Virus record (IMG/VR): IMGVR_UViG_3300045988_107889
Location: 1-64,000 of that record
DNA: 64,000 bases
Reading direction: 5' to 3' (one strand)
DNA from: a virus
Shown: positions 2,683 through 58,068 of the stretch, one piece after another
Position numbering within the stretch: the stretch's first letter is position 1
Layout of the letters: each line of letters opens with the position of its first letter
Made by a program: the position numbers and the translations under genes
The notes under the pieces: model-generated
Seen by the model: the letters and a program-made list of their open reading frames with translations, nothing else
What the model was told of the DNA's origin: nothing
Databases searched by the model: none

Positions 2683-2793
2683 GCAATACGGACTTAACTA
2701 CCGTTTCCTTCCCAAGGTAATCCTTGTACGCAACTCTATTCCGCATTATCATATTCTGAATTGCGGTAAGTAAATTTTTAATATTCAGTTTAT

Positions 2794-3239: not shown

Positions 3240-3242
3240 TCC

Positions 3243-3563
3243 TCACATCAAAATAATTTTCCCGTCTTCATCAGTCAGCAGTTCTCCGTTATTACTAACA
3301 GCCGCCAACATATTCGCATCCATTAGACTAGCTACTGTATCATCCGCTACTAACGCGGAAGCTCCTCCTGAATTTTTATACGTCCATTCATGGAGTTCTT
3401 CATCATACATATACTCTGTTTCCGTATCCATTTCATAGAACGTACTGCCATTTGAAATCGGCATTCCATCAAAAGTTTTGATTGGCTTTGTATCGGTAGA
3501 TTTGCCAACAAAGTTCATATCATTTTTATTCTGATGGCCGCCATATTTAATCAAGGACACCAT
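3243..3563 (-). CDS. hypothetical protein
   Basis: 106-aa ORF in the operon. No recognisable motif. Confidence 0.55.
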   Translation of the reverse strand: MVSLIKYGGHQNKNDMNFVGKSTDTKPIKTFDGMPISNGSTFYEMDTETEYMYDEELHEWTYKNSGGASALVADDTVASLMDANMLAAVSNNGELLTDEDGKIILM

Positions 3564-3607
3564 GTTAGGTCACATCCTTTCATCATCAATGTTAGAAGAC
3601 CTGGAGG

Positions 3608-3817
3608 TTATTCCTCCAGGTCTTCTTTCTTATCCATATTCATCAAAGCTGCCAGCACAGCGCTGACGACGACCGCCCCAGCACTGATCGCTACAGTCTT
3701 TGCACTTGCCACATCGGTGACGCCGTTAACCCATGCTACCAGGTTCGCGGCGATAGCACCGGCGGCAGCCTGCAGTGCGGTACGTAGTGCTCTATGGAGC
3801 CATTCTCTTTGTTTCAT
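3608..3817 (-). CDS. holin (phage r1t-type holin-like)
   Basis: 69 aa. WLHRALRTALQAAAGAIAANLVAWV...AISAGAVVVSAVLAALMNM gives two hydrophobic helices plus a charged C-terminus KKEDLEE. Resembles the r1t holin family pattern. Confidence 0.65.
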   Translation of the reverse strand: MKQREWLHRALRTALQAAAGAIAANLVAWVNGVTDVASAKTVAISAGAVVVSAVLAALMNMDKKEDLEE

Positions 3818-3843
3818 AACTATTACTCCTTCCGTTAGTACAG

Positions 3844-4272
3844 TTATTCTTCATTCTTGGTGGGGAGCTGTTTAAGCTCTTCTACCATTTTTGTAATCGT
3901 ACCATTCCCACCTAGTGAATGGTACGCACAATAACTTTCCAACACATTCTGCATCGCATACATAGGGATGTAACCCATGTTTACATAATGCGAATGATCT
4001 CTAATAATTTCTGCTCGCAGCAAACACTTCATCCCGTCGTTAACTGCATGGTAGCGCTGGAACAGTGTTTGCTGCTTTTTGTATAAAACCGCCCATACCC
4101 CTGTCAAGAAAGAAACAAGCACAGAGACAATTACTTGAGGTACATACTCAATCAATTTGTTCACCTCTTTTACAAACTGTGGTCTGCCTTGCAATTGCAC
4201 CAGATTAGTCAATTGGGTATGAGATAGAGACCACGTAATTCCCCGCAGCACCATAGACCAATTGAAGCCCAC
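3844..4272 (-). CDS. single-pass membrane protein (possible second holin or lysis regulator); start uncertain
   Basis: One TM segment VIVSVLVSFLTGVWAVLY. The N-terminal 23 codons overlap the fibre gene, so the true start may be internal. Confidence 0.5.
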   Translation of the reverse strand: MGFNWSMVLRGITWSLSHTQLTNLVQLQGRPQFVKEVNKLIEYVPQVIVSVLVSFLTGVWAVLYKKQQTLFQRYHAVNDGMKCLLRAEIIRDHSHYVNMGYIPMYAMQNVLESYCAYHSLGGNGTITKMVEELKQLPTKNEE

Positions 4273-31344: not shown

Positions 31345-32315
31345 TCATCGACCACATCCTCATCTTCTGAGTAATCCGGACGATCAACCCTGTACTCACT
31401 CATCGCCTCTTCGTACATCTCGTTGTACTTGTTGTCCACCCCTACCATATTACATAACGGGCCTAGGAACCAAGTCATGTTGTACTTTCTAATATTATCA
31501 ACGTCAACCCAGTCCGATTGCGGCTCCGGAATAGGGCGTGTCTGCTCCCACTTTTGAATCGCTACACCAAAAGGCATATCATCTAGCCCAGAGTTCCGCT
31601 CGTCCTCTTTGATCTGGCTGGGCTTCAGATTCAATGAACCTAGCGTATTGACCAGAGAGGCTTGTTGTTTTTCGAAAGGCTTACCATTCTTCTGAAGTTC
31701 ATCAATCTCAAACACAGACAGACAAGCCTGTTTAACCAGGAGAGCCTTGGCGGGAGTATCAACGGTATATCCATTAGTCAGCCTGTCGTATGTATGTTGA
31801 AGCTCGTCGTAGCACCACGGCTCTCTGCCCTTACCCCAGAACTCTTCTAGTTCAGGGGGGACTTCAGGATCTTCTTCAGCGTTCATACCAATAGAAGCCT
31901 GCTTCCCCAGTAGCATTTGTCGCCGGGCTTCTTCGACGACAGTGTTGTCATATGTCTTTTTAATATGCTGGTTGAGGTTCATTCGGTCAAGGTAAGTTCT
32001 GATCAATGTTGAACTCTCGCTTTTGTTCGCCGTAGAGACCTTATCCCAAACGTCTTTTTCCCAATAGATATCAAACTTCGAGCATACCTTTTTAGCTGCG
32101 TCCGCCTCAGATAGACCGCTATCCCTATACTTGATATATAGGGCGTCAACACACCTGTTACACCAGCACAGGTAGTTATTATTTCCTTTATACAGCGTGC
32201 TCTGAACAGTCTTGAAATTGCGAGCTTGTGTAGGATAGACAGTGCCGCAACCAACACATTTGAACTGACCTTTGACTCTTGTGGGTTCCGTCGCCCCTAA
32301 TTTCTGCCTAGCCAT
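31341..32315 (-). CDS. putative terminase small subunit / DNA-binding protein with a zinc ribbon
   Basis: CVGCG...CWCNRC Cys4 motif. 4-nt overlap with terL. Confidence 0.45.
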   Translation of the reverse strand: MARQKLGATEPTRVKGQFKCVGCGTVYPTQARNFKTVQSTLYKGNNNYLCWCNRCVDALYIKYRDSGLSEADAAKKVCSKFDIYWEKDVWDKVSTANKSESSTLIRTYLDRMNLNQHIKKTYDNTVVEEARRQMLLGKQASIGMNAEEDPEVPPELEEFWGKGREPWCYDELQHTYDRLTNGYTVDTPAKALLVKQACLSVFEIDELQKNGKPFEKQQASLVNTLGSLNLKPSQIKEDERNSGLDDMPFGVAIQKWEQTRPIPEPQSDWVDVDNIRKYNMTWFLGPLCNMVGVDNKYNEMYEEAMSEYRVDRPDYSEDEDVVDE

Positions 32316-32638
32316 TACAGGTCAATAGTCTGGAAACGACCGTGCGCAACTTCATCACGGAGCCGCTTGCCTGGGCTAAACTTTACACCCTTGCGGGGAG
32401 GAATATTATAAGTCTGCTCGTTGATTGTTGCTTGTCGTTCAGGATATTCATGTACCTTAAAGGCACCAAAACCGTGCAGAGAGATGTCTTCGCCTTCGGC
32501 CAGTGCCTTTTCGATAGCGAACTTTACAGCATCTACCATCAGTTCGCCATCCTTTACTCTATACTTAACGCCAGACAGATGCTCCGCCATTTCCAATACT
32601 CGTCTTACAAATTGCTTATTGTTAATCATTTCATTCAA
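32315..32638 (-). CDS. HU/IHF-family DNA-binding protein
   Basis: LHGFGAFKVHEYPERQATINEQTYNIPPRKGVKFSPGKRLRD matches the HU beta-arm signature. Confidence 0.85.
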   Translation of the reverse strand: MNEMINNKQFVRRVLEMAEHLSGVKYRVKDGELMVDAVKFAIEKALAEGEDISLHGFGAFKVHEYPERQATINEQTYNIPPRKGVKFSPGKRLRDEVAHGRFQTIDL

Positions 32639-32655
32639 CCTTTCATTCGTTCATG

Positions 32656-33681
32656 TTACAGGTCAGCTAGTCCAGTTGCCTTAACATCTGTTTTAATTCC
32701 ATCTTCACCAAAATACTTTTCCAACTGTTCGTCATCAGGAGTGTCGTCATACAGCCGAACCATATCGGCGGAACTCCAGCCGATAACAGTCTGCACAACA
32801 CTATCCGGCAGACCAAGCCGTGCTAACTTTGTGGTGAAGAAATGACGTAAGGCGTGCCAATAGAACGGCACGCCCAATATTTTGCTAAACCGAACAGCCC
32901 AGCTGTTCAGCGTAGAAATATTCATTTGTTTCGTGGGGTCTGCTTTGTCATAAAACAGCCATTCGCTCTCCACGTTATTTTCTTTTCTCCAATTCATATA
33001 GAGGTCTAAGTAAGGGTCGAACTCTTTTGAGAGGGTGTAACAATAGAGATATTTACCGTTGCCAGCACCTTTTGTTTTTACCTTCTCCGGAGTCTTATAT
33101 AGCGACCCGTAAATAATGTTGTCGTTTGTGAACCAGTCTACCTTAAAACGCAACAGTTCCGACTTTCTTCTTCCGCTACACATAGCAAGTGACAGTGCGC
33201 ACGCTTGAGTAAACCTCTCTTCTTTAACCAGAATATCTAGCAGCGACTGCAACTGCTCATCAGAGAACACTGTTTTCTCTCTAACCGGCTGATTGATTGG
33301 GGACTCGATCTTCCTCACGATGGGACGATATCCTTCATACTCGTCGTCCAAAATATTCTCCACGTAATTGGATAGGGAAGAAAGGGCGGCCTTTAGACGT
33401 CTGACTCTTGCTGGGGAGTTTTCGTTCTCGTAGATAAGCCAGTTCTGATATGAGATCAGGTCACGCTTTGATAGGTCAACAAAGAATTTATTATTGTTGT
33501 TCTGCAGATTCCATACAAAGAAGATGTCGAGGTCGTGGGAGTACCCATCAATTGTTCCACTACTTCTTTGTACTGATTTTAGATAAGTAAGGAAATCGTT
33601 CTTCAATCTTTTATTTTCTGGATTAACCTGCTCTAAAAGCGTAGGGCTAGTGATGTTGTTATACTTTGTCTTACGTGGCAT
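32656..33681 (-). CDS. tyrosine recombinase (XerC/D- or phage-integrase-type)
   Basis: Box I SGRRKSELLRF, HALRHFFTT (HxxR), and GWSSADMVRLY (catalytic Tyr region). An N-terminal SAM-like domain is present. Confidence 0.85.
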   Translation of the reverse strand: MPRKTKYNNITSPTLLEQVNPENKRLKNDFLTYLKSVQRSSGTIDGYSHDLDIFFVWNLQNNNNKFFVDLSKRDLISYQNWLIYENENSPARVRRLKAALSSLSNYVENILDDEYEGYRPIVRKIESPINQPVREKTVFSDEQLQSLLDILVKEERFTQACALSLAMCSGRRKSELLRFKVDWFTNDNIIYGSLYKTPEKVKTKGAGNGKYLYCYTLSKEFDPYLDLYMNWRKENNVESEWLFYDKADPTKQMNISTLNSWAVRFSKILGVPFYWHALRHFFTTKLARLGLPDSVVQTVIGWSSADMVRLYDDTPDDEQLEKYFGEDGIKTDVKATGLADL

Positions 33682-33715
33682 ATACGCCCACCTCGCTTTC
33701 TAGCAGCATTCAATT

Positions 33716-34915
33716 TTAGTCTAGTCTTATATTGTATGACGCGTCTCGTCCGCACTCAGGATTGAAGAACAGCAGCGTCTGACCAGGAATGCTATACAGC
33801 CTTTTTGTATTAGCAAAGCTATCTGTGCCGCACAGCGCTCGAACAGAAATTGTTTCAATTGCAAGCTCTTCAAACTCTTCTAAGTGATGACGATGCGCTA
33901 AGATAATATAGTCAATCTTTTGGTCAAATCGTTGCGAGAAAAGTGCGTAAAGACTCTTCCCCGCTGTGTTGACTTTCTTCTCTAGGTCGCCGTGTGTCGC
34001 ACAAATGTAATAACCACAGACGTTCATTGTAGCGAACTCCGGATACTCAGAGTTAATAATATGAACGTGATTAAATCCAGCCAGCCTTAGCTCAAGCCAC
34101 CAGGGAATTAGCCGCTCTATATTATCTGTGTGGATACTATCTTTCTTATTCTGTACTGTACGTGAGTGATTACCGTAGGTGCAATACAAATTCAGTTCCG
34201 GCACATACTGTGATAATTCAGCAACCGTTTCAGCAATAAGCTCTGACACCTGCATAATCTGATCGCACACCAGTTGTTCCGACTCAATCCTAGAGGTTGT
34301 ATGAATGGCACCGCTAATCATGTCACCTAGCACAAGTATGTGCAGCTTGCTAGGCTTGTGTAACTTCATCCGCTCGACCGCGCCGTCAATCAGTTTTCTG
34401 ACGCGGTTAACACAGATATCGGTGCTATACTCGTTCCAAACATTATAGGTCTTCATCCCGTAATGCCAGTCCGCCAACACCAATACAGCCTCATTATTCC
34501 CACGAATCGTATGTAACTCTTCTTGGTAAAGATTATGCAGCTTAGGGGTTAAAGTGAGCGCAGCCTCGAACAACCTGTCACCTAACGCCTCCAGCCTGCC
34601 TGCATGAGACAGCTTCGCATCCAGGACTCTCTGCTGATCAAGTAGCGCTTTGCGCTCGTGTTCGATCCTTTTTGTCTGATTGTATAGCGGGTCTTTTGCA
34701 TTGACCTTATGGATGAGCAGCCCCTCATTGTCGATTACTTCAAATAACCGTTTCATGCCGTACATTCGTCGGCGAACCTCGGACGAACTGTAGGCGTTGC
34801 CCTCACCAAAAATCTCTTCGCTGATATCTTCAAAGCTGTCGGGGAGAGTACGGGTGACAAGTTTGCTATCGACAAGATATCGCAAGCGGTCGTAAGAGAT
34901 CACTGACGACGACAC
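33716..34915 (-). CDS. calcineurin-like metallophosphoesterase (SbcD/Mre11-style motifs)
   Basis: LADWHYG (DxH), LGDMISG (GD), YGNHSR (GNH), THGD and AHRHH motifs occur in the canonical order. Confidence 0.75.
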   Translation of the reverse strand: MSSSVISYDRLRYLVDSKLVTRTLPDSFEDISEEIFGEGNAYSSSEVRRRMYGMKRLFEVIDNEGLLIHKVNAKDPLYNQTKRIEHERKALLDQQRVLDAKLSHAGRLEALGDRLFEAALTLTPKLHNLYQEELHTIRGNNEAVLVLADWHYGMKTYNVWNEYSTDICVNRVRKLIDGAVERMKLHKPSKLHILVLGDMISGAIHTTSRIESEQLVCDQIMQVSELIAETVAELSQYVPELNLYCTYGNHSRTVQNKKDSIHTDNIERLIPWWLELRLAGFNHVHIINSEYPEFATMNVCGYYICATHGDLEKKVNTAGKSLYALFSQRFDQKIDYIILAHRHHLEEFEELAIETISVRALCGTDSFANTKRLYSIPGQTLLFFNPECGRDASYNIRLD

Positions 34916-35136
34916 CCCGTTTCACCATAGGTAGCGACCACACCTTCTGTTCGCAGTCGATTTAGGAATCTCATAACTGTACGACTTTCTTCTAGATAGA
35001 ACTTATGTCGCGTCTTTCTGATGTTTGCGCGCCGTACTTTCTTACGGATTGCTGCAGCTTCTGCTCTTGAAATTTGAATCAATTTCTTTGCTCCTTTTAT
35101 TCTATTTGAGATTAAATAAAGAACCATATTGTTCAT
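34900..35136 (-). CDS. small basic protein, first gene of the late operon
   Basis: 78 aa, Arg/Lys-rich, overlaps the next gene. Confidence 0.5.
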   Translation of the reverse strand: MNNMVLYLISNRIKGAKKLIQISRAEAAAIRKKVRRANIRKTRHKFYLEESRTVMRFLNRLRTEGVVATYGETGCRRQ

Positions 35137-35148
35137 TTAAAATGTTCC

Positions 35149-35162
35149 ATGAACCTGTTCAT
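35149..35162. promoter_or_regulatory. palindrome ATGAAC-CT-GTTCAT immediately upstream of the late operon
   Basis: Perfect 6+6 inverted repeat 13 nt upstream of the first late gene. The ATGAAC half-site recurs three times at 44666-44702. Confidence 0.35.
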
Positions 35163-35210
35163 TATTTTAATCTCATATAATAGTAGAATTTTTTGGAAGA
35201 TAAATTTTTG

Positions 35211-35238
35211 CAAAAAAATAGCGGCCTTCTGGCCGCTA
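35211..35238 (-). terminator. intrinsic terminator of the lipoprotein moron
   Basis: Stem tagcggcc/ggccgcta (35219-35226/35231-35238), followed on the minus strand by T7 (plus A-run 35212-35218), 7 nt after the stop at 35245. Confidence 0.85.
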
Positions 35239-35244
35239 AAATTT

Positions 35245-36003
35245 TTATTCCTGCTTCTCCAATACGGAGCCAGTGTTAAGCGTAATTGTGTTACCATCAA
35301 TTTTCCCGCTCAAGACGTTGCTTTCAGATTGAGAAATAATATTAAAATTGTTATCAGAAACTCCCCACCTTATACTGGTCGGGCCAGTGGAACTACCATT
35401 AACAGTAACATCAATATTGCCAACGCCAAAGCTCTTTACATCTAGCTCAATTTCAATATTACTATTATCTTCGACGCTACGATATTTACCAGTATAATCT
35501 GGTGTTTCCTTGCCACTATAGTTGATCACAAAAGAACTGTAGCCGTGATCGACTACTTTTCCATCACTCAACTCTGGCAAAAATCCAGCACCATTTGCAT
35601 AACACTTCATCACCTGATTCCTATCATCAGGGGTAGCGTTTGGTAGGGCGGCTTCGAGAAAGGAAAAAAGCTCCGAATTGAATGCGTTATCCGTACTTTG
35701 ACCAGTCGTTTTAAAATTGCAAATAAACGCGACTTCTTGTACAGAATCATTTTCGCCAACAGAATCTCTTCCTGTGGAGATTTTAATTTTAGACCCATCA
35801 ATCAGCGAAAATGAACCGCTACTATTAGTCTTGTTTAGACGCGTCATCGACCCATAATCGATAGAGAAAGTCTCGCTCCAGGCTTCGAGACTTTTATTAT
35901 ATGTGTCACAGAACTCTCCAACCGTAAAAGAACCTCCTCCGCCGCAACCAGCCAGCGATACGGCCATGCATATCGCAAGTAAAGCACCTAGTATTTTTCT
36001 CAT
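35245..36003 (-). CDS. secreted lipoprotein (moron; candidate superinfection-exclusion or lysogenic-conversion protein)
   Basis: MRKILGALLAICMAVSLAGCGGG is a signal peptide with a lipobox L-A-G-C. The gene has its own promoter and terminator. Confidence 0.8.
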   Translation of the reverse strand: MRKILGALLAICMAVSLAGCGGGGSFTVGEFCDTYNKSLEAWSETFSIDYGSMTRLNKTNSSGSFSLIDGSKIKISTGRDSVGENDSVQEVAFICNFKTTGQSTDNAFNSELFSFLEAALPNATPDDRNQVMKCYANGAGFLPELSDGKVVDHGYSSFVINYSGKETPDYTGKYRSVEDNSNIEIELDVKSFGVGNIDVTVNGSSTGPTSIRWGVSDNNFNIISQSESNVLSGKIDGNTITLNTGSVLEKQE

Positions 36004-36036
36004 ACACTTTTCCCCCATCAATTTAACGTTAGAACT

Positions 36037-36065
36037 ATTTTACCACATATTACATTGTTCGTCAA
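36037..36065 (-). promoter_or_regulatory. sigma-A-type promoter of the lipoprotein gene
   Basis: Minus strand reads TTGACG (36065-36060), 17 nt, then TGgTAAAAT (-10 at 36042-36037, extended TG). Confidence 0.7.
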
Positions 36066-36079
36066 TATATGCACCACCA

Positions 36080-36358
36080 CTACACCGATCTAGTCGCCGC
36101 CAGGCGTTCAGCTGCCGCAGCCTTTTGCGCATCAGACATTCTGCGCTTTGGGGATACTCTTACCCAGTCACGGGGAACCGTGTATGTCACGGCTCCCGTT
36201 TCTGATTCTCTGATCTTCTGTATTTCGTCTGGCCTGTCTTTGCAGAACTTAGATAGGCGATTGATTAACCGCTTGTTATGTGTATATACTTCGGCGCGGT
36301 CATCTACTTCCGTATAAAGGATGATTGTTTCTCTTTCTTCTTTTGATAAGTTAACCAT
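36080..36358 (-). CDS. hypothetical protein
   Basis: 92-aa ORF overlapping the upstream gene by 8 nt. Confidence 0.5.
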   Translation of the reverse strand: MVNLSKEERETIILYTEVDDRAEVYTHNKRLINRLSKFCKDRPDEIQKIRESETGAVTYTVPRDWVRVSPKRRMSDAQKAAAAERLAATRSV

Positions 36359-37037
36359 AATTTTCTCCCTCTATATAAAACCGATTTCGCTGTGTCTTTT
36401 CAAATATTTCATTATGTAACTTTTTAAAGTCATTGCGTACAAGCTGAAACTTTCCAGCGTTATAAAGCGGAACCTCTATACGCAATCTAGTCTGAGCATA
36501 TTTACTAGTGGTTGTTTTCTTAGCTCGATGCCACACTGTAGTTGCGCTAGAGTCCAGCTTCGTGATGTACCCAAGCTTAATAAGCTCCGGTAAGTAGCTG
36601 TGGCTAATATGCTGTCTAGTGACACCGCACCACTCAGATAAAGCGGATAGGGAAATGTCAAATTCTCTATTCTTATTTGCGTACACCTTCGCATAGCATA
36701 GCAGAGCTAGAGCAAGTTTGCGTGTATTCTTTCCGTCAAACAAATTGACGATTCTGTTGATGTCTGTTTCGCTTATGTATAAAGTCACATTATCTTTCAA
36801 TCTATCATCACAATTACGCGCCGATTCAATAATGTCATTTACATTGTACTTCAAATAATTATCGGTACGCTTTGCCCACTCAAAAATCCTGTCTCTTGTT
36901 TCTCGGAAGGTACACCCTTCCTGGGTGTACCAACGAGCAATCATATAGGCGGCGCGGTAACGACCGCGTTCTGTTATCTTCTTTCCGTCAAGGTACTCTT
37001 TTACTTCATATACTTCATCTATCAAATGAGGGAACAT
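36351..37037 (-). CDS. winged-helix-like DNA-binding protein downstream of the RNA polymerase gene
   Basis: LSALSEWCGVTRQHISHSYLPELIKLGYITK looks like HTH/wHTH. Overlaps the end of RNAP exon 3. Confidence 0.5.
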   Translation of the reverse strand: MFPHLIDEVYEVKEYLDGKKITERGRYRAAYMIARWYTQEGCTFRETRDRIFEWAKRTDNYLKYNVNDIIESARNCDDRLKDNVTLYISETDINRIVNLFDGKNTRKLALALLCYAKVYANKNREFDISLSALSEWCGVTRQHISHSYLPELIKLGYITKLDSSATTVWHRAKKTTTSKYAQTRLRIEVPLYNAGKFQLVRNDFKKLHNEIFEKTQRNRFYIEGENYG

Positions 37038-37657
37038 CCTCCTTCTTTATCTTAATCATCGTATATCTCTTTCCTAGGTATTCGAGTTCTCCTGTATCAT
37101 CCTGCTTTGGCAGTTTGATGTCTGCCTGCTCGATATTGCTAACAATGCCAGCGCCGCCAACAACCCACTTAAACCGCTGATTCCACGTCCTGTGGTCATG
37201 GCATAACATGACGGCGGCGTTAGCAACCAGCGAGGCGTTGCCGTTACAAATAGAGTAGCAGCGATTCCTATACCGCTCGTACAGTAGGGCGTATGCTTTC
37301 TTGCGTTCCGCTTCCGCGTCCTCTCCATCGAGCTGTTTCAACTTGTGCGACAGCTCTTTTACCTCTGTGCAGAACGAGCGATAGACTTGCTCCATTTCCT
37401 TGTAGAGTTCGTCCGAAACAGGGATTTCATCGTTAATCATGATGTTATAGTCGAACTCTTGGTCAGCTCTTTTGTACCTGACGCCCTTCTTCCAATGCTC
37501 GATCTCCCAACACAGCTTATTCATATTGGACAGTGAACGAGACAGCTTCAGTCTTTCATAATACGGAGAGGCGTACTTCATAAAATAAGGGAGGGGGCGT
37601 CCATATTTTGAAATAGTGCGGGGCATAGGGTACAGGATTCCGGTCTTTGCGTAATCT
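37015..37657 (-). CDS. YonO/QDE-1-like single-subunit RNA polymerase, exon 3 of 3
   Basis: The frame is open upstream of the annotated Met back to 37657. Begins (A)GAT TAC GCA AAG ACC GGA = DYAKTG, then ...PLPYFMKY, which is RdRP-family-like. Confidence 0.7.
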
Positions 37658-38768
37658 CTTTTACACCCTCCGTTTCCGGATATTTGTTAGGGAATAGACT
37701 ATATCATTACCCGTAAGACACGGGCAGTCAGCGCTTCCATTTAAGGGGATCTCACCCACTGAGAGTTTCACTCAGCCGTACTCCTATTGCGGAATCTCAC
37801 CGCCAACGGGATAGTCGTTGCACCTTCCTTATTAAAGGCTTGGCACAGAATTATCATATAGCACATTGTTTTTAACTTATATTATTTGATGTACACCATT
37901 CATCCCATCCGTCAACATGTACGTGCTTCCACGTTCTGTTATTCTTTATACTGAGCACGATGCCGTAACTGATGTTATTCTTTTTTGAAACCGCAGTAAT
38001 ATTTTCTCCATTCATAAGCGATTCCTTTATCCCTTTAGCGACGTCTTCAGATATTTTAGCGGATTTGTTTTTGCTTCCTTGAAGCGCCTTTGAGATCTTT
38101 TCTCTCGTATAATCACTGACGACTCTTCCCGTCATAAGCTCTCGCAATTTATTTTTGTGTTCATCTGAGCACGGTAAATGTTTGCTTGACTCTGACATTT
38201 TTCGCTTCGTCTCTTCAGAAGCTTTTCGCCCAAGCATATGCTCCCGATTTTTCTCTCCGACGATACGCTTTGCGTGGTCGTTCATAGGCACCCCACGTTT
38301 CCCGCCTCCGCCATCCGAAATATTGTAGCAGCTCCCTTTATCTTTTAGTTCTTTTATGTAGTATATTTCAGCGGCATCGACGTCATCACTATCGCTACAA
38401 ATTTGCACAACTGAAAACGTGAAGGAGTCTGATCCGTATTTATTCCAGGCGTTTTGTAAATGCCTGTTATCGTGTGAATGATCATTTAATTTCCAACAAT
38501 GATTCCAAAATCTTCTTTGAAAATTTTGCTTGGTCTGCCCAATATATTGCTTGCCGTTAACTGTATTGGTAATAGAATATATTCCAAAAAGATCTTTATA
38601 TTTTTCTTCTTCTATAAATTTCAATAATACTCCTCTTGGTAACTCATCAGAATTTATTTTATGTGCTACTTAGATTTTCTCTGTTAGCCGGTTCTTGACC
38701 GACACCCTACATGTGTAGGTTCACTGACTTTGCACTACGCTGTTACCAGCGCAGGCCACCGATTGTTG
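37658..38768 (-). mobile_element. group I intron (1111 nt) carrying a GIY-YIG homing endonuclease ORF
   Basis: 5' splice site follows U (..AAAUCCAU|CAAC). Intron nt 10-13 GUGG pair with exon CCAU (U-G wobble), and nt 5-8 AAUC pair with the 3' exon GAUU (P10). The intron ends in G (..GUAAAAG|AGAUUAC). Contains a P7-type AAUGAUAUAGUCU. Shares blocks with the intron at 39053-39332. Confidence 0.75.
37872..38624 (-). CDS. GIY-YIG homing endonuclease (I-TevI-like, with NUMOD-type repeats and a C-terminal HTH)
   Basis: GIYSITNTVNGKQYIGQT..RRFWNH..N GIY-YIG core, repeated ..EETKRKMSES / DEHKNKLREL / REKISKAL motifs, TTG start preceded by GAGGAG. Confidence 0.85.
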   Translation of the reverse strand: MKFIEEEKYKDLFGIYSITNTVNGKQYIGQTKQNFQRRFWNHCWKLNDHSHDNRHLQNAWNKYGSDSFTFSVVQICSDSDDVDAAEIYYIKELKDKGSCYNISDGGGGKRGVPMNDHAKRIVGEKNREHMLGRKASEETKRKMSESSKHLPCSDEHKNKLRELMTGRVVSDYTREKISKALQGSKNKSAKISEDVAKGIKESLMNGENITAVSKKNNISYGIVLSIKNNRTWKHVHVDGWDEWCTSNNIS

Positions 38769-39052
38769 ATGGATTTACCTGTTAAGACACTTATAATGTC
38801 AATATACTTCTCATACTTATCTCTTTGTTCTTCTGTTTTACCACATCTGTTTCTGTATGCTGTTGCGTAATTACTGTACTCACCAATCAAATTCTTCATT
38901 GTCCGTAGGATTACTTTCAACCTGTTCTCTGGCGTAAATTCCTCCGGCTCTGTTGTAATCTTATCATCTACGTCTATAACAGGTATGGCGTTTTTTTCTA
39001 CGCCGTTTAGTAACCTGTCATCATCAAATACTAAAACTAAATCTCCGTCAAA
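38769..39052 (-). CDS. YonO/QDE-1-like RNA polymerase, exon 2 of 3
   Basis: No start codon. Frame is open from 39052: TTT GAC GGA GAT = FDGD...LVLVFDDD... and ends ..LTGKS-AU. The ORF-track ORF 38735-38920 is its 3' part running into the intron. Confidence 0.7.
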
Positions 39053-39332
39053 CTTCTACTCTCGTAGAAAGACTATATCATCTACCGCATAGCGGCAGCG
39101 GTGCGCTTGGAAGCCCGTATCAATAGGACTCCTACTGGGCTACACTCATCACCCATAGTCGTTGCACATTCCTTAAAGGCTTGCACAGGATTACCTTCCC
39201 GGCTTCCCCTGTTAGCTGAACAACTAGCAGTCATTTCCTACTGCTCCTGACGTTTGCTCAACACCCGCTGATAAACGGTTCACACCGAGCTTACACCTAC
39301 GTTACCGCAGGGAAGGACTTTGTTTAGGAGTA
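39053..39332 (-). mobile_element. group I intron (280 nt, ORF-less)
   Basis: 5' splice site follows U (GCAGAU|UACUCC). Intron nt 11-17 CAAAGUC pair with the 3' exon UUUG (P10) and the 5' exon GAU (P1, U-G). Ends ..GUAGAAG|UUUGAC. Contains GAUGAUAUAGUCU and GCAAGCCUUUAAGGAAUGUGCAACGACUAU blocks shared with the other intron. Confidence 0.75.
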
Positions 39333-40739
39333 ATCTGCTCCATTCAATCTTTGTGGGATTATTGATTTAGAATTGATGATGCACGTATTAACCAAATGAC
39401 TGAGGTACTTGCTTGTTAATTCATTATTGATAGCGTACAACACGACATTCTCACTATCACAAATGTGAGGGTTACGTGTAATCAACTTGCCGCCGTGCAT
39501 TGGCCCTTCTTTTGTTATACAGTAAAATTCATTGTCGCCGAGACAACCGTTAGGATCTAAACCAGCCGCCGCTTCCATGAATGCAATTAAGTCTGGTATC
39601 AGAAACTTGAAGCAGCTCTTGATCCATATCTTGCCGCAGCACATCTCGTCTATGTATTTAGTCAGCAGACTGATTAAGTAACTCCGCACTTCATATTGTT
39701 TAAGCATAGCGGGATTCTTTATTACGGACTTTGCATAGTCGTTTAAGGGACTGCACTTATCTGCCGTCAGCCCTAAGAAGCACATAGAGTAGAAGGGATC
39801 GCCGTCAATAATCTTTTGTGCCCACTCAATAGAGTCCGTAGCAAGCTCAACAAATTCTTGGTAGGGGAGGTTGAGCGTCTGAAGAACCTGGTAGTTGCAT
39901 CTCGTATAAACTGGCTCGATATCTTTATTGAAGTTCCATTTAGCAACGCCTAAGCAATAACCATACTTTTCGAATTGCTCCCAATAATATTCCCAGTCTG
40001 TTGCATCTTTGTTCGTCTGAAAATATTTGAAGCCCTTATACATACTCTTGCTCAAGATAATCATCGGCTCGGCGTCCGGGGTAACGTCATGCGACACGCC
40101 CCATATATCCTTGATAGATGTTACACCCCGCTCGGCGTAGAAGGTGGGGTAATCAACCTCGCAGGTAAGACCTTTGATATACGGCGCTCGCCAAAGTATC
40201 GTCGTCGGGCTATCAGCAGACGACAGCCGGAACTGAACCTCGTCCGTAATAGCCGGGTGGTGTATGCCACAACCGTCAAATGGAGTTACGTTGATATCTC
40301 TATATCCGTCCGCCACGCTCTTTTGCGTCCAGAGGATCTCTTTGCCATCAGCGTTGGTGAAAGATGTCTTTTCATCGTATATGTATTTGATATGCTGTTG
40401 CGGCAACACGCACTCGTAGTCCGGCACAACAATCACTTTAGGGCGGAAGCCATTCAAGCAATGGCAAGAAGAAAGGCATAGACCCCTATAAGCCATCAGC
40501 TTACTTATGACGGTCGGGCCGGGGCCAGCCCCCATAGTGATTGCCTCGTACACCGGATCTGATATAGCCGCGTCGATAAAGCTCAAGATAGAGTTGCGGG
40601 TCATGCTCGCCGATCGTTCGCACAGTACAAAGTGAGTGCCGTTTAACCAGAACCCATTCATAATTAGCTCCGTCATGACGTCTGTATCAGAGGAGCTACC
40701 CTTACAATCGACAAAACAAATACGCCGCGCACAGGTCAC
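39333..40739 (-). CDS. YonO/QDE-1-like RNA polymerase, exon 1 of 3 (5' end uncertain; frame open to 40892)
   Basis: Ends ...RLNGAD at 39333; the annotated ..YS* tail is intron read-through. The GTG at 40739 is the first canonical start. The frame continues 51 codons upstream to a CTG that lies 7 nt after GAGAGGTG. Confidence 0.7.
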
Positions 40740-40922
40740 ATCTTCGCCTGTGATACGCCGTATCTGATAGAATAGTAAATTGTCTGCCTGCTTTATTTCG
40801 TAGGGACGCAGATCTACCCGTAAAGAAAAATTGTTCTCTTTTAATAGCTTGAAAGCTATCTTGTATGTCGTGTATAGCTTAGGTGCGAACAGTTAAAAGC
40901 ACCTCTCTTATCATGAAAGTGA

Positions 40923-41253: not shown

Positions 41254-41631
41254 CTACTCACTTTCTTTGTGCCATTTGAATGTTACTGCCCCGCCAGTAT
41301 AAAATTTACTGTGGAAGATTAAGTTCGCCACACCATAGTAATTGATAATGGTTAACACTTGTTCCTCACGGCGTGGTTGCAAACTACGAATCACAACTCC
41401 AGTCTGTCTGTTTTCCGGATTGACATATTTAGTAATTGCGTCTTTCGCATCCTCATACCTTAATATCGCGGCCACGTCCTCGCCAATTATCCGGTGGTCG
41501 CCTGCGTCACAACTTGCGACACAACTATAATCGTTATTTGCGATGACTCGCGCATTACCAGTAAGAACTTCGTGAGCAGAAAAGAAAATACTTAACTTAT
41601 TCTCCCATATCTCATCTTTCCATATCGTCAA
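41254..41631 (-). CDS. hypothetical protein, weakly Bro-N/antirepressor-like
   Basis: EDVAAILRYEDAKDAITKYV...TIINYYGVANLIFHSK...FKWH loosely resembles the BRO-N pattern. Tentative. Confidence 0.35.
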   Translation of the reverse strand: MTIWKDEIWENKLSIFFSAHEVLTGNARVIANNDYSCVASCDAGDHRIIGEDVAAILRYEDAKDAITKYVNPENRQTGVVIRSLQPRREEQVLTIINYYGVANLIFHSKFYTGGAVTFKWHKESE

Positions 41632-48660: not shown

Positions 48661-49449
48661 ATGAATAACAATGAATTGTTGAAAAAGTACGAATCCACTA
48701 CCACCACCGACCTGAACAATCAGGTGAAGTCCGCTGTCGAGAAGGCAAACGCCTATGCTAAACAGCCCGAACTGAACCAGGTCGAGCTGTTGAAGCTCCG
48801 TGCCGATGCCGTTGCTCTGGCAGATGACTATAACCGTCTGGTAAAGCTCCGCCGTCTGGGCGAGCTGGCCGCCATGTCCTACGGGGACGCCATCAACGCC
48901 ATGACGGTAGAGGGCGGGGAAACTTGCCCCAAGATGGAAGTGATTCTCGATGGGGAGATCATGAACATCACCACGTCCAACGCCACCCGTATCCGCTGGA
49001 ACGAGTTGTTGAAGGCTGGCCAGTGTCCCGACGGTTACGAAAACCTGGAATCCCTGGTAAAGGTTTTCACCCACAACTGCCTCACCAACAAATTTGAAAA
49101 GGGTCAGTTGGTCGAGCTGCCCCCGCTGGACCCCGCTATCAAAGCGGTCGCTAATGGTCGTGACAACTGGGACTCTGGCTCTATGAATAAGTTGCAGTGC
49201 CAGATCCGGGATCTCATCGGCTGGATGTTCCCGGTGGACGAAGTAGGGGAATACTCTGCTCCTAGAAAGTCTGATGTACGGTGGTTTTCTGACATCGTTT
49301 GCCCTGCGAGTGACCGCGCTGGTGAACCTGCCCACTATGTCCAGCGCAAGGTATCTACTTTGTTGGACTCCCTGTTCAGAGTGTTCTATACCCTGAAAGA
49401 GGAGAAGGAAGTGGTCGTACGGCCTGCAAAAGCTAGCAAGAACCAGTAA
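48661..49449 (+). CDS. hypothetical protein (262 aa) downstream of the structured RNA
   Basis: Strong RBS aaaaaggagaataacc-ATG. GC-richer codon usage like the recombinase. No motif recognised. Confidence 0.7.
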   Translation: MNNNELLKKYESTTTTDLNNQVKSAVEKANAYAKQPELNQVELLKLRADAVALADDYNRLVKLRRLGELAAMSYGDAINAMTVEGGETCPKMEVILDGEIMNITTSNATRIRWNELLKAGQCPDGYENLESLVKVFTHNCLTNKFEKGQLVELPPLDPAIKAVANGRDNWDSGSMNKLQCQIRDLIGWMFPVDEVGEYSAPRKSDVRWFSDIVCPASDRAGEPAHYVQRKVSTLLDSLFRVFYTLKEEKEVVVRPAKASKNQ

Positions 49450-49559
49450 GTCGTTCCGGCGACTATAAACAGGCGTTAGGCCGGGAGCGTTCGCAGGTTA
49501 GGGCAAGCCCAACCTGCGAGGTCGCAGGAATAACATAGGTGGATTCTGTCTATGCCTGC

Positions 49560-55571: not shown

Positions 55572-55647
55572 ACCAGCATAGTTTTAAATGGGAAAACAAC
55601 GGTCTCCAAAACCGTAGTTCTAGGTTCGAGTCTTAGTGCTGGTGCCA
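55572..55647 (+). tRNA. trnW-CCA: tRNA-Trp (CCA)
   Basis: ACCAGCA/UGCUGGU acceptor (A1-U72, G73), anticodon arm ACGGU-CUCCAAA-ACCGU, T-loop UUCGAGU, CCA encoded. Confidence 0.85.
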
Positions 55648-55714
55648 CGTGCAAGTTTAATTGCACGGTGTGTAGTGTGAAAAAAGTCATATATTGCTCT
55701 ATGTATATAACCTC

Positions 55715-55863
55715 ACGGCGTAAAAGAGGTTGACTGTCTGACCGCAGTTATTCCAGTGCAATTCTGGTTGCCGTACACGCTGCTCAAAGCGGGTGAAGAG
55801 GTGTGGCACACTCCTTCCGTGCCTCACTTATGACTTCAAGGCGGTGCAATTCCGCCTAGCAGC
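55715..55863 (+). ncRNA. two adjacent tRNA-like / degenerate tRNA elements sharing a hairpin loop UGCAAUU
   Basis: Unit 1 (55715-55774): ACGGCG...CCAG-UGCAAUU-CUGG-UUGCCGU. Unit 2 (55779-55863): GCUGCU...GGCAC-ACUCCUUCC-GUGCC...GGCGG-UGCAAUU-CCGCC-UAGCAGC. Both lack a D-stem and CCA. Confidence 0.35.
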
Positions 55864-56053
55864 TCTCAATCGCTCTAGTTAACTGGTTCTGGGGCGAGGG
55901 TCAAAACCAGCAACCTAAACATTGATTGCAGACACCTGGTTAAGTACAGGCTAGGCAAGAAAGCTCTCAGGCACGGTTGGGCAACACAATCCAGCCCTAT
56001 CCTTTGGTTAGGCCGACTGATTGATAGGGCGGTTGTGGTTGCTGAACAAATAT

Positions 56054-56144
56054 CTCCCTGTAGCTAAATTGGTTATAGCTTCCAACTTATAATTGGAAGG
56101 CCCTCATAAGGTATATGGTGATTCGAATTCACCCAGGGAGACCA
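56054..56144 (+). tRNA. tRNA with anticodon UAU (Ile2-type reading AUA) but a class II-like 19-nt variable arm
   Basis: CUCCCUG/CAGGGAG acceptor, D-arm GCUA..UAGC, anticodon arm UCCAA-CUUAUAA-UUGGA, variable region AGGCCCUCAUAAGGUAUAU, T-arm GGUGA-UUCGAAU-UCACC, A-CCA. Confidence 0.65.
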
Positions 56145-56195
56145 CGATACCACGATAAAAATCTAATTCCATAAATAAGAAAGTGAGGAACTAAT

Positions 56196-56849
56196 ATGAA
56201 CAAAGAAACTATGACCGTCCATAAAGCTCTTGCGGAGCTGAAAATTTTGGACGCTAGAATTTTCAACGCCACTTCTGGCAAAACATTTGTCGCCGCGAAG
56301 AAGGTGAGCGACAAAAAGATCGGCGGTGTGTTGGTCGAAACCCTCAAGAAGGATATGAAGTCTGATTATCAGTCTGTTACGGACTTGATTGCTCGTCGGA
56401 CTGCCATTAAGAGAGCAGTTGTGCTCTCTAATGCCAAAGCTAAGGTAGTAATTGGTGGTGAGACCTATACTGTGGCAGAAGCTATTGAAATGAAGAACCA
56501 TGGCCTCATGGCAAAGAGAGACTTGCTGGATGTAATGGTTCGGCAGTATGAAAAGGCTCGTGCCGAGGTCGCCAAACACGAAGGCGAGTGGATTGAAGCG
56601 AAAGCCGAGCAATACATTATGAATTTCCTTCAGTCGCAGCCCAAAGAGGCCAAGACAACCAAGGATTCTGAGGTCGTTAAGCGGTTGAGAGAAGAGTATA
56701 TTGCCAACAATACGTATGAACTCATTGATCCGCTTGACATTGGTAATGAAATCAAGGTTTTGAGCGATTGGATTGACGCGTTTACTGCGGATGTAGATTC
56801 TCAGCTGTCTGTGTCCAATGCGACCACTACAATCACCGTAGAATACTAA
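56196..56849 (+). CDS. hypothetical protein embedded in the tRNA array
   Basis: 217-aa ORF with RBS gtgaggaactaat-ATG. Helical and Lys/Glu-rich. Confidence 0.7.
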   Translation: MNKETMTVHKALAELKILDARIFNATSGKTFVAAKKVSDKKIGGVLVETLKKDMKSDYQSVTDLIARRTAIKRAVVLSNAKAKVVIGGETYTVAEAIEMKNHGLMAKRDLLDVMVRQYEKARAEVAKHEGEWIEAKAEQYIMNFLQSQPKEAKTTKDSEVVKRLREEYIANNTYELIDPLDIGNEIKVLSDWIDAFTADVDSQLSVSNATTTITVEY

Positions 56850-56856
56850 AATAATC

Positions 56857-57199
56857 AACTTGCTGCAACCCGAAAACCTAAAACGGTAACCCATCGTGCT
56901 GACGGCACTTGGTTCGATGTAAAAATGAACAAATATGTGCCAACTACAAGGCAAACTTGAAATTTTGTGCTTGTAAAAAGATTGGGCGGTTAATCCAAAT
57001 CTCTTATAAAAAGAAGATATTTGCTGTAAAGCTCAAATTTCAAAGCTCGAATTTCAAAATTCAAGGCTCAAAGATCTTCAGAAGATTAAAGTTCAAGGGT
57101 CAACGTTCAATGGTTAAAGTTTTACAAAATCCTGGGTTAATGGTTTGGGTCAGTTATCAACGCCCACGGGTCAACCACCAGGCTGGGTTGTAGCAAGTT
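56857..57199 (+). ncRNA. ~343-nt element closed by a 15-bp helix, containing TTCAA/GCTCAA-type short repeats
   Basis: AACUUGCUGCAACCC (56857-56871) pairs with GGGUUGUAGCAAGUU (57185-57199). The single difference is a G-U wobble only on the plus-strand RNA. The interior has aagctcaaatttca/aagctcgaatttca and ttcaagg(c/g)tcaa repeats. Confidence 0.4.
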
Positions 57200-57205
57200 C
57201 AATAT

Positions 57206-57290
57206 GCGGGATTGGCGGAATTGGTAGACGCATCGTGTTTAAGTCTCGATGTCGAAAGACGTAGGAGTTCGAGTCTCCTATCCCGTACCA
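57206..57290 (+). tRNA. trnL-UAA: tRNA-Leu (UAA)
   Basis: GCGGGAU/AUCCCGU acceptor, anticodon loop UUUAAGU, long variable arm, T-loop UUCGAGU, A-CCA. Confidence 0.8.
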
Positions 57291-57439
57291 AAGAAAAGCC
57301 CATAGTTTGCGGACTATGACACCTGAAAAGTGGCGGTTTGCTTCTGGTAGACCGTAGTAGTGTGTTGACATCCTGGAAGAGACAGGAGTTCCCCTTTTTG
57401 ATCCCCCTTACATAGCTACCCCGCTTTGCGGGGTAGCGT

Positions 57440-57515
57440 GGCCGATTAGTTTAAATGGTAAAACGGCGGATTTGTACCCCGCAGATGTCGAGTTCGAGCC
57501 TCGCATTGGCCTCCA
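57440..57515 (+). tRNA. trnT-UGU: tRNA-Thr (UGU)
   Basis: GGCCGAU/AUUGGCC acceptor, anticodon loop UUUGUAC, T-loop UUCGAGC, U-CCA. Confidence 0.8.
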
Positions 57516-57516
57516 T

Positions 57517-57590
57517 GCTACTATAGTTTAATGGTTGAACGGTTGTTTCGTAAGCAACAGGTTCCAGTTCGATTCTGGGTAGTAGCTCCA
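57517..57590 (+). tRNA. trnT-CGU: tRNA-Thr (CGU)
   Basis: GCUACUA/UAGUAGC acceptor, anticodon arm GUUGU-UUCGUAA-GCAAC, T-loop UUCGAUU, U-CCA. Confidence 0.85.
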
Positions 57591-57593
57591 TAT

Positions 57594-57668
57594 CTGGGTG
57601 TAGCGCAATGGAAGCGCTCCTGATTTGGGATCAGGAGGTTGTCAGTTCGAGCCTGACCACTCAGACCA
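57594..57668 (+). tRNA. trnP-UGG: tRNA-Pro (UGG)
   Basis: C1-G72 acceptor CUGGGUG/CACUCAG, anticodon arm CCUGA-UUUGGGA-UCAGG, A-CCA. Confidence 0.85.
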
Positions 57669-57670
57669 AT

Positions 57671-57745
57671 GCAGGCGTAGTTCAACGGCTAGAACACCGG
57701 TCTTCCAAACCGGAAACGCGAGATCGGCACTCGTCGCCTGCTCCA
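57671..57745 (+). tRNA. trnG-UCC: tRNA-Gly (UCC), non-canonical T-loop AUCGGCA
   Basis: GCAGGCG/CGCCUGC acceptor, anticodon arm CCGGU-CUUCCAA-ACCGG, U-CCA. Confidence 0.8.
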
Positions 57746-57851
57746 TATCAAGCAACAGAAAACGATTCTCCTACCTGTTATTGTTGATAAATCACCTCCT
57801 TTCTTTACATAGCCTGGAATGGCGTTAAACTCTGCTCTGCTTGATTTATAT

Positions 57852-57925
57852 AGCGCCGTAGCATAACGGTAATGCAACGGACTTTGACTCCGTAAACGGT
57901 AGTTCGACACTATCCGGCGCTGCCA
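57852..57925 (+). tRNA. trnQ-UUG: tRNA-Gln (UUG)
   Basis: AGCGCCG/CGGCGCU acceptor, anticodon arm ACGGA-CUUUGAC-UCCGU, T-loop UUCGACA, G-CCA. Confidence 0.8.
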
Positions 57926-57983
57926 CGTTCGTTTTATACGGACACTTGCTTTCATTAACCGGCGGTACCACCGCCGGTAACAT

Positions 57984-58068
57984 GTGGGCGTGATGTAATT
58001 GGCAAACATGCGAGATTTAGGTTCTCGTGTCGAAAGATGTGCGGGTTCGAACCCCGTCGCCCACTCCA
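57984..58068 (+). tRNA. trnL-UAG: tRNA-Leu (UAG)
   Basis: GUGGGCG/CGCCCAC acceptor, anticodon arm CGAGA-UUUAGGU-UCUCG, long variable arm, U-CCA. Confidence 0.85.

Follow-up and report, generated by a model that had tools for sequence, protein, structure and literature searches.

A YonO-family RNA polymerase gene of a gut Clostridia phage, split by two predicted group I introns

Do three consecutive minus-strand reading frames in a virus record make up one RNA polymerase gene, and what is the DNA that lies between them? The window analyzed here is the whole 64,000-nucleotide (nt) stretch from IMGVR_UViG_3300045988_107889, and all coordinates are in window numbering. The gene in question is carried by a tailed gut Clostridia phage or prophage. 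An initial annotation had proposed that the three frames join once 280 nt and 1111 nt are excised, and that the product is a single-subunit two-barrel RNA polymerase (RNAP) of the YonO/QDE-1 type; both proposals hold up below. Our overall reading, to which we assign a probability of roughly 0.82, is that the locus is an intron-split gene for an 828-amino-acid (aa) YonO-family RNAP that is spliced and transcribes phage DNA.

One polymerase from three frames

The three segments (1560, 284, and 643 nt, Table 1) yield a single open reading frame (ORF) when translated after joining. They lie in phases 0, 2, and 1, and only the excision of exactly 280 nt (39332-39053) and 1111 nt (38768-37658) gives a continuous frame. 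At the first junction the product reads ...PQRLNGAD|FDGDLVLVFDD, and the predicted ligated DNA is GGAGCAGAU|UUUGACGGAG (RNA GCAGAU|UUUGAC). At the second it reads ...LTGKSI|DYAKTGILYPMP..PLPYFMKY, with DYAKTG after the junction and the Ile codon divided AT|A, and the predicted ligated sequence is GUAAAUCCAU|AGAUUACGCA (as RNA, AAAUCCAU|AGAUUAC). The first junction had been thought to rebuild the NGAD|FDGD metal-binding loop, and exactly this is read in L008, an IMG/VR locus of 97% aa identity that is without intron 1; its DNA, AATGGAGCAGAT|TTTGACGGAGAT, is identical to the predicted ligation GCAGAT|TTTGAC. The second junction, thought to rebuild LTGKSI|DYAKTG...PLPYFMKY, is continuous in the homologues and in locus L006, which is uninterrupted there; an intron-less second site of the L006 or P0001 type is GGTAAATCCATTGATTACGC.

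Three uninterrupted homologues, P0001 (824 aa, 72% identity), P0002 (70%), and P0003 (65%), are collinear with the joined protein across both junctions, gap-free and end to end, and dozens more collinear uninterrupted homologues are found at ∼50% identity. Pfam RdRP covers the joined protein in a single stretch that spans both junctions (aa 23-599 of a 777-aa version with a later start, see below), and phrog_8308 matches aa 16-763 of that version with E = 1e-79. Because the single Pfam stretch, the phrog_8308 match, the gap-free homologues, and the L008 and L006 alleles all agree, the joining of the three segments is far beyond chance.

The identity of the product was examined by sequence and by fold. 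The joined protein matches the Pfam RNA-dependent RNA polymerase (RdRP) family PF05183 with E = 9.8e-16 (58 bits, cutoff 23.8), and the same family is present in 120 of 120 listed homologues having a precomputed Pfam entry. By BLASTP, it aligns with SPbeta YonO over 659 collinear residues at 24% identity (E = 1e-28), an alignment that includes all catalytic motifs and pairs FDGCG with TDGCG, RAPYIKG with RLPWVKG, RNPHI with RSPHL, DFDGD with DNDGD, and SIDYAKT with TIDFAKT. Searched by tblastn against phage genomes, it matches SPbeta yonO (E = 5e-17) among 24 Bacillus SPbeta-like records, SPbeta included. The matches extend to full-length genes labeled "RNA-dependent RNA polymerase" in Thomasclavelia phages and in a human-gut phage contig. 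Both YonO (839 aa) and the present protein are single chains, and the size class proposed for the product was correct. Eight residues are reported to be invariant in two-barrel RNAPs, namely an Asp and two basic residues in the beta-like barrel, and RxP and DxDGD in the beta'-like barrel (PMC2919709). In an alignment of 89 sequences, the corresponding residues, D206, R235, K240, R473, P475, D520, D522, and D524, are invariant. The spacing D-29-R-5-K equals that of QDE-1 D709/R738/K743 (numbering per PMC2919709), a mapping made by spacing and not by residue-level superposition.

Searching PDB sequences with the polymerase returned no meaningful match, and structural matches came only from a fold search. 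Structure prediction followed by Foldseek had been suggested as a check in the initial annotation, and the outcome supports the assignment made there. The AlphaFold2 model of the product has a mean predicted local distance difference test (pLDDT) value of 93.2 and a predicted template-modeling (TM) score (pTM) of 0.90. Its best 21 matches in the PDB are all plant RDR2 or fungal QDE-1 (E 1e-22 to 3.5e-18, TM 0.5-0.58). They are followed by small two-barrel RNAPs from Thermus phages (8f5m, 8f72) and then, weakly, by largest subunits of multisubunit RNAPs. The PDB set searched contains no YonO structure, and the top matches among BFVD folds are phage "RdRP" proteins. We note that the double-psi beta-barrels were assigned from these overall fold matches, not by residue-by-residue inspection. 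The likeness to QDE-1 (2j7n, 5fsw) and RDR2 (7w82, 7rqs) extends over ∼900 alignment columns and includes the Pfam family and the eight active-site residues with their spacings. However, identity to these enzymes is 12-16%, and they are eukaryotic, use RNA templates in silencing, and carry extra head, neck, or N-terminal domains. Because of the YonO homology, the Pfam family, the fold matches, and the conserved catalytic residues, we place the predicted protein in the YonO-like branch of the two-barrel RNAP superfamily, together with the QDE-1/RDR eukaryotic RdRPs, an assignment that holds on every test of sequence and modeled fold.

The start of the polymerase required a decision between two candidates. 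Missing N-terminal residues were first indicated by the phrog profile and an 864-aa Thomasclavelia phage homologue. Homologues open with MFAPKLY, and their Met1 aligns with CTG 40892-40890, which has an in-frame TAA immediately 5' of it. The predicted product is 828 aa from this non-canonical initiator, because the homologue Met1 alignment, the upstream TAA, and a Shine-Dalgarno sequence (Table 1) coincide there. Of the two sizes offered initially, the longer one from 40892 thus stands; the 777-aa version from GTG 40739 does not, because homologues reach 51 residues further and the model folds that segment at pLDDT 88-95. Five contigs (the window, L004 at 5884, and L008, L009, and L010 at 4001) share the CTG behind three different upstream stops (TAG, TAA, TGA), and equivalent GAGGTG boxes precede TTG and GTG starts in L006 and L005. 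Elsewhere in the family, the Met1 position is occupied by TTG, ATG, ATT, or GTG; a rough count over the fetched loci gave TTG 30, ATG 27, ATT 8, CTG 3, and one each of ATA, ATC, and GTG. This distribution suggests selection for weak initiation of the polymerase.

Two further N-termini were rejected. Initiation at ATG 40914 with a +1 shift into the frame of the polymerase is disfavored because that ATG opens an 11-codon upstream ORF (uORF) ending at 40879 and the CTG-aligned start is conserved. The upstream 61-aa ORF (41108-40923) is not a lost N-terminus, since in Thomasclavelia phage TR-TP1 this place is taken by a small gene of its own, and the polymerase begins at the aligned Met. The uORF itself (40879-40914, minus strand; ATG ATA AGA GAG GTG CTT TTA ACT GTT CGC ACC TAA) overlaps the CTG start in another frame, includes the polymerase Shine-Dalgarno, and is conserved in L004 and L008-L010. 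It may reflect translational coupling, attenuation, or chance.

Table 1. Features of the polymerase locus, in window coordinates
Feature	Positions	Strand	Description
Shine-Dalgarno AGAGGTG	40900..40906	minus	7 nt 5' of the CTG start; read from sequence
Exon 1	39333..40892	minus	aa 1-520; D206, R235, K240 (beta-like barrel) and RNPHI (R473, P475); last codon D520, GAT 39335-39333
Intron 1	39053..39332	minus	280 nt, no ORF; between the D520 and F521 codons of the metal-binding DFDGD loop
Exon 2	38769..39052	minus	aa 521-615, with two bases of the I615 codon; opens with FDGD (D522, D524)
Intron 2	37658..38768	minus	1111 nt; within the Ile codon of the conserved SID(Y/F)AKTG motif; 284 nt downstream of intron 1
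GIY-YIG homing endonuclease gene	37872..38624	minus	250 aa, TTG start, Shine-Dalgarno AAGAGGAG; in the terminal loop (L5) of an extended P5 helix
Exon 3	37015..37657	minus	last base of the I615 codon, aa 616-828, stop; DYAKTG, PLPYFMKY, helical C-terminal domain
228-aa gene	36351..37037	minus	overlaps the polymerase stop codon by 23 nt; similar-sized gene after the polymerase in TR-TP1, L001, L004, L005, L006
Intrinsic terminator	35219..35238		strong, bidirectional; 8-base-pair (bp) stem, 6 GC pairs, T-run; between the polymerase cluster and the exonuclease/recombinase/structural block

The two insertions and their mobility

By predicted structure, both insertions are group I introns. Each has an exon U at position -1 and G as its final base (intron 1 GAU|UAC...GAAG|UUU, intron 2 CAU|CAA...AAAG|AGA), and the same U/G boundaries are found in L004, L005, L008-L010, and the phages Goe11 and CB457P1. 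Read from the sequence, the intron 1 guide 5'-CAAAGUC-3' is complementary to the ligated GAU|UUUG, and in intron 2 a GUGG pairs with the 5'-exon CCAU while the adjoining AAUC pairs with the 3'-exon GAUU. P4 is formed by ACAGGG/CCUGU in intron 1 and ACAGAG/UUCUGU in intron 2. The core of both contains the R element GUGCAACGACUAU and the S element GAUGAUAUAGUC; the latter forms P7 (GACUAU/AUAGUC), which crosses a long-range P3 to give the group I pseudoknot, and P4-P6 are present. Intron 2 is ∼317 nt long without its ORF. By alignment, the introns sit in the two most conserved coding stretches of the polymerase.

At the gathering threshold of Rfam Intron_gpI (RF00028, 50 bits), no intron was matched in the window, and permissive searches and orthologous copies were needed. 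The threshold is passed by intron 2 of L004, an orthologue without the ORF (50.5 bits, E = 3.5e-10); intron 1 of L004 scores 26.7 bits. Comparison of four copies of intron 2 (85% mean column identity) shows compensatory changes at 22 of 91 consensus pairs, among them pairs in P4, P5, P6, P7, and P9, and the one in P7 is a UA-to-CG change. For intron 1, 7 of 78 pairs are compensatory, two of them in P3, among four much more similar copies, so that the statistics are weak. Support for intron 1, from anatomy and exact presence or absence, is thinner than that for intron 2.

The ORF in intron 2 matches Pfam GIY-YIG (PF01541, E = 1.6e-13) and NUMOD3 (PF07460, E = 8e-9), the PHROG homing endonuclease family phrog_314 (E = 4.6e-42), and the catalytic domain of I-TevI (1mk0/1ln0, E = 1.5e-10). 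At the P5 loop, the window and L008 read UAGCACAU-[794 nt]-AUGUGCUA, whereas the ORF-less site in L004 is UAGCAC-GAC-GUGCUA, and L009 and L010 have another short closed hairpin. Judged from these alleles, the arrangement is the usual one for an optional homing endonuclease gene. In a co-infected cell, the endonuclease would probably cleave the intron-less allele of a related phage, and repair would then copy intron 2 into the cut allele; the ORF-less intron 1, 284 nt away, could ride along by co-conversion. Such cleavage and homing have two indirect indications, described below: a near-identical tract around intron 2 shared by the window and L008, and a related endonuclease at the corresponding yonO motif of Bacillus phages.

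The combinations of introns and endonuclease vary among close relatives, whose polymerases are 88-97% identical to that of the window. The window has all three elements; L008 lacks intron 1 and keeps intron 2 with the endonuclease ORF; and L004, L009, and L010 carry both introns and no endonuclease ORF. At 75% aa identity, L005 has the same combination as L008. Where an intron is missing, its absence is exact (intron 1 from L008 and L005; intron 2 from L006, L001, and P0001-P0003). In a wider survey, the polymerase gave a single continuous tblastn match in 73 of the 87 loci fetched by then, a few of the 73 being truncated contigs or reference loci outside the survey set. Site 2 (aa 612-617) is interrupted in the distant loci L066, L069-L072, L078, L081, and L085-L087, and, judging by span lengths, probably also in three bacterial genome loci (L102, L104, L107). 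L078 has an extra ∼1.37 kb insertion (2635-4001) at polymerase aa 130/131, potentially a third point of insertion within the family.

Divergence between the window and L008 is mosaic. The two copies of intron 2 differ by 5 mismatches in 1111 nt, and a tract that opens ∼60 nt ahead of the intron 1 site and extends over the first ∼450 nt of exon 3 has 0-2 differences per 100 nt, compared with 5-12 per 100 nt in the middle of exon 1 (exon 1 being window 39333-40892, aligned to L008 4001-5560). Synonymous divergence (dS) in exon 2 is 0.018 vs ∼0.2 elsewhere. This mosaic indicates recent recombination around the intron sites, and it is the pattern that gene conversion accompanying homing would leave.

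Phage group I introns are well-known in T4 td (with I-TevI), nrdB, and sunY, in the DNA polymerase genes of SPO1/SP82 and Bastille, in Twort, and in SPbeta bnrdE/F. The present introns resemble T4 td and other phage introns in the ORF looped out from a peripheral helix, the combination of GIY-YIG and NUMOD3, and the sporadic occurrence among close relatives; they differ in that the host gene encodes a two-barrel RNAP rather than an enzyme of DNA metabolism and in that two introns, one with an endonuclease, lie 284 nt apart. Phage group I introns with GIY-YIG endonucleases in gene parts that encode active sites are already known (PMC12908238).

Closer parallels are found in two groups of phages. 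In the Bacillus phages Goe11, Goe14, SPbetaL4-L7, and BUCT083, the records annotate yonO_1, a "hypothetical protein", and yonO_2, with no intron; the split is in the same ID(F/Y)AKT motif, and there is no intron in the DxDGD motif. The Goe11-type intron core is visibly homologous to that of window intron 2 (AAAGUCAGUGAACCUA..UAGGGUGU, GCUAACAG, CCUGUGCCAAGC, GGUGCAACGAC, GAUAU(A/G)GUCUAUUCCCUAA.AAAUAUC.GGAAAC.GAGGGU), and the GIY-YIG ORF between yonO_1 and yonO_2 is the best phage-database match of the window endonuclease (45% identity, 97% coverage). The Goe11 insertion, also with U/G boundaries, lies 4 nt further downstream (ATC GAT|TTC there vs AT|A GAT in the window). The Enterocloster phages CB457P1 and PMBT24 have a YonO-family gene whose annotation is either three hypothetical proteins or RdRP. 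Both motifs of this gene are interrupted, each by an insertion that contains no ORF and has a group I core and U/G boundaries. However, these proteins are ∼24% identical to the window polymerase, the introns are of different sequence, and the insertion points are shifted (DFD|GD, 6 nt downstream; ELD|K, 4 nt downstream). Because shifted insertions occur at the same motifs in Goe11 and CB457P1, the two most conserved coding stretches of the family are recurrent intron targets, and a single intron/endonuclease lineage is found in phages whose polymerases share only 24% identity. Our literature searches found no described intron in yonO, in YonO-family genes, or in the "RdRP" genes of Enterocloster phages.

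A bolder reading of these parallels, which we regard as doubtful, is that one intron/endonuclease lineage has become specialized on the ID(F/Y)AKT site and has moved between Bacillus SPbeta-like phages and gut Clostridia phages, the endonucleases being 45% identical where the polymerases are 24% identical, and that the introns serve as a weapon in competition, in late timing, or both. If so, the endonuclease lineage could, in co-infection, cut the gene for a rival phage's late-transcription enzyme at its active site, and double splicing together with the conserved weak CTG/TTG/ATT starts could delay or throttle synthesis of the polymerase and help time the late switch.

Expression, late transcription, and alternative readings

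In the pathway that we propose, a pre-mRNA would be made, presumably by the host polymerase, and each intron would fold into a P3-P9 ribozyme core. The exons would be aligned on the internal guide (P1/P10), and two guanosine-initiated transesterifications would excise the intron and restore the frame; translation would start at the weak CTG behind its strong Shine-Dalgarno. Self-splicing of both introns is inferred. The finished enzyme would transcribe phage DNA, most likely the downstream structural and lysis genes, by analogy with YonO and from gene order.

The gene order of SPbeta and what is known of its YonO make this a reasonable reading. YonO is a processive DNA-dependent RNAP whose activity is abolished by mutation of the Asp triad, and it is required for 37 late SPbeta genes in one operon with a start site upstream of yonK (PMC5467207). 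The initial annotation placed the present gene directly upstream of a late operon. Co-oriented late genes do follow, with ∼37 kb of co-oriented genes after the polymerase, but they do not adjoin it directly; four small genes, a terminator, an exonuclease gene, and a recombinase gene lie between. In minus-strand order, the polymerase is followed by the 228-aa gene, a 92-aa gene, a lipoprotein-like gene, the terminator, an AT-rich 130-nt spacer, a small ORF, and genes for an exonuclease, a tyrosine recombinase, the large terminase, portal, capsid, a 2489-aa tape measure, and an endolysin (1466-153). It would be too simple to call the polymerase the first gene of the late operon. The arrangement resembles that of SPbeta (yonO, stem-loop, yonN, YonO promoter, late operon; PMC5467207 in part), where small genes and a terminator or stem-loop likewise separate the polymerase from a long co-oriented structural and lysis block. 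The differences are that SPbeta is a Bacillus phage and the present one a gut Clostridia phage, that yonO is uninterrupted and the window gene has two introns and a CTG start, and that an HU-like yonN follows in SPbeta whereas the conserved 228-aa gene, and no yonN, follows here.

The best surviving alternative, which we nevertheless consider unlikely, is that the spliced protein is made and is not a late transcriptase, serving instead as an RNA-dependent RNAP, in early or middle transcription, in priming, or in a conflict system. The family is named "RdRP" in Pfam and GenBank, and the nearest experimental structures are of enzymes that copy RNA (although a DNA template is bound in one of the QDE-1 entries), but the phage genome is double-stranded DNA with no RNA replicon in sight. 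SPbeta YonO, 24% identical, is the sole tested member; that one characterized phage member is nonetheless a processive DNA-dependent enzyme needed for 37 late genes (PMC5467207). Gene order can be argued either way: a terminator and non-structural genes intervene before the structural block, and TR-TP1 and the Enterocloster phages have the polymerase gene at the left genome end, whereas the order of polymerase, small genes, and long co-oriented structural/lysis block is common to SPbeta. Taken by analogy, DNA-dependent activity and late-gene specificity would be the expected properties of the window enzyme.

An argument from promoters, that no sigma-A-type promoter could be found for the late genes, had been offered for a late RNAP. 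A scan for sigma-70-like promoters gave 36 matches against a shuffle expectation of 33.5 +/- 5.2. Because the matches equal this expectation and candidates exist (for example, 36065-36037), the argument has no force. An Rfam search of 32000-37100 for an RNA of the kind associated with the YonO promoter found none. In Goe11 (L003), a "skipping-rope" RNA at 7473-7582 (plus strand), just after yonN, is sub-threshold (31.3 bits where 36.7 are required, E = 0.001); its position is roughly that given in PMC5467207 for the YonO start site and a non-coding RNA that is not annotated.

A second alternative is that this is a dead polymerase gene broken by mobile DNA, whose three frames are never joined. 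The window introns fall below the Rfam threshold, and the first frame is without a canonical start at the Met1 position of the homologues. Against this, in-silico removal of the insertions gives intact ORFs of 827-828 aa in six independent contigs, the catalytic residues are all intact, the insertions have complete group I anatomy with compensatory changes, and the CTG start is retained in five contigs behind its three different upstream stops. The ratio of nonsynonymous to synonymous substitutions (dN/dS) between intron-bearing alleles is 0.03-0.07 per exon, including both exons downstream of insertions (exon 2, 0.03-0.04 vs L004 and L009; exon 3, 0.04-0.07). Such values show purifying selection on all three exons and argue strongly against a pseudogene. 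The gene is most probably functional, because dN/dS is low also in exons 2 and 3, which are translatable only after splicing; a dead gene is very unlikely.

Inteins, group II introns, and programmed frameshift or bypass sites have a negligible chance of explaining the interruptions: although inteins and group II introns likewise target conserved motifs in phage enzymes, inteins are ruled out by stops in the host frame from the first codons (TAC TCC TAA in intron 1), group II introns by the 280-nt and ∼317-nt ORF-less lengths, the group I P/Q/R/S core, and the absence of a reverse transcriptase, and the intron-less alleles are precise deletions of an entire element.

Several points weigh against our overall reading. 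CTG is a rare initiator. The window copies of the introns score 24.3 bits (intron 2) and 22.4 bits (intron 1) against RF00028, sub-threshold values from a permissive search. The guide helices are short and without covariation data; P1 of intron 1 has 3 bp on the exon side, 7 bp counting P10. The group I assignment of intron 1 depends on anatomy and on seven compensatory pairs from four close copies. The polymerase is set apart from the structural genes by a strong terminator and by several genes of non-structural function. Finally, there is no YonO-type promoter consensus with which to search (PMC5467207).

Neighboring genes and significance

Profile searches with the 228-aa protein gave sub-threshold winged-helix and helix-turn-helix matches only. 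This protein may bind DNA as a partner of the polymerase; the question of a specificity factor for YonO is raised in PMC5467207. The AT-rich spacer (35085-35238 region, minus strand) contains two GAAC-N-GTTC palindromes, GAACAGGTTC and GAACAATATGGTTC, before the small ORF and the exonuclease gene, and a regulated or polymerase-specific promoter at this site is plausible.

The practical consequence of these results is for annotation. Gene callers split such a locus into three or four unrelated "hypothetical proteins" (database proteins of 483, 527, and 627 aa, yonO_1/yonO_2 in GenBank, and three ORFs in Enterocloster phages are examples), and a complete polymerase emerges once the introns are recognized. 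Interruptions affect about one-sixth of the YonO-family loci that were fetched from viral metagenomes. The insertion points also provide an independent mark of the two most constrained stretches of a minimal RNAP. A profile search found relatives of ∼50% identity in gut Clostridia and their relatives (Diplocloster, Anaerolentibacter, Oscillospiraceae, Christensenella, Faecalibacillus), and a single-protein search of species-representative genomes found no close relative of the polymerase. Because the family is common among gut Clostridia phages and prophages, the YonO paradigm probably extends well beyond Bacillus. YonO-like polymerases in Firmicutes phages and genomes were already known (Iyer et al. 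2003, as cited in PMC2919709; PMC5467207). The case combines known kinds of element and is useful for annotation while leaving current concepts unchanged; conceptual novelty is absent, and the split is already visible as yonO_1/yonO_2 in GenBank entries for several Bacillus phages. Near-identical phages that differ by intron 1, intron 2, and the endonuclease, together with cultivable Bacillus subtilis phages carrying a related intron/endonuclease pair, offer a tractable system for homing and competition.

A few other features of the window deserve mention. A Bro-N protein gene lies shortly upstream of the polymerase in the window (41254-41631, minus strand), in L004 (5005-5832), and in L006 (4100-4999), and L005 has an AntA/ANT protein gene; a putative antirepressor gene next to the polymerase is conserved synteny. 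At the point where the minus- and plus-strand gene blocks diverge, a full-length Pistol ribozyme is found at 49449-49526 on the plus strand (RF02679, 66.9 bits with a threshold of 34.5, E = 5e-10). The plus strand also carries nine tRNA genes at 55572-58068 (Trp-CCA, Ile-TAT, Leu-TAA, Thr-TGT, Thr-CGT, Pro-TGG, Gly-TCC, Gln-TTG, and Leu-TAG), an array typical of a large phage genome.

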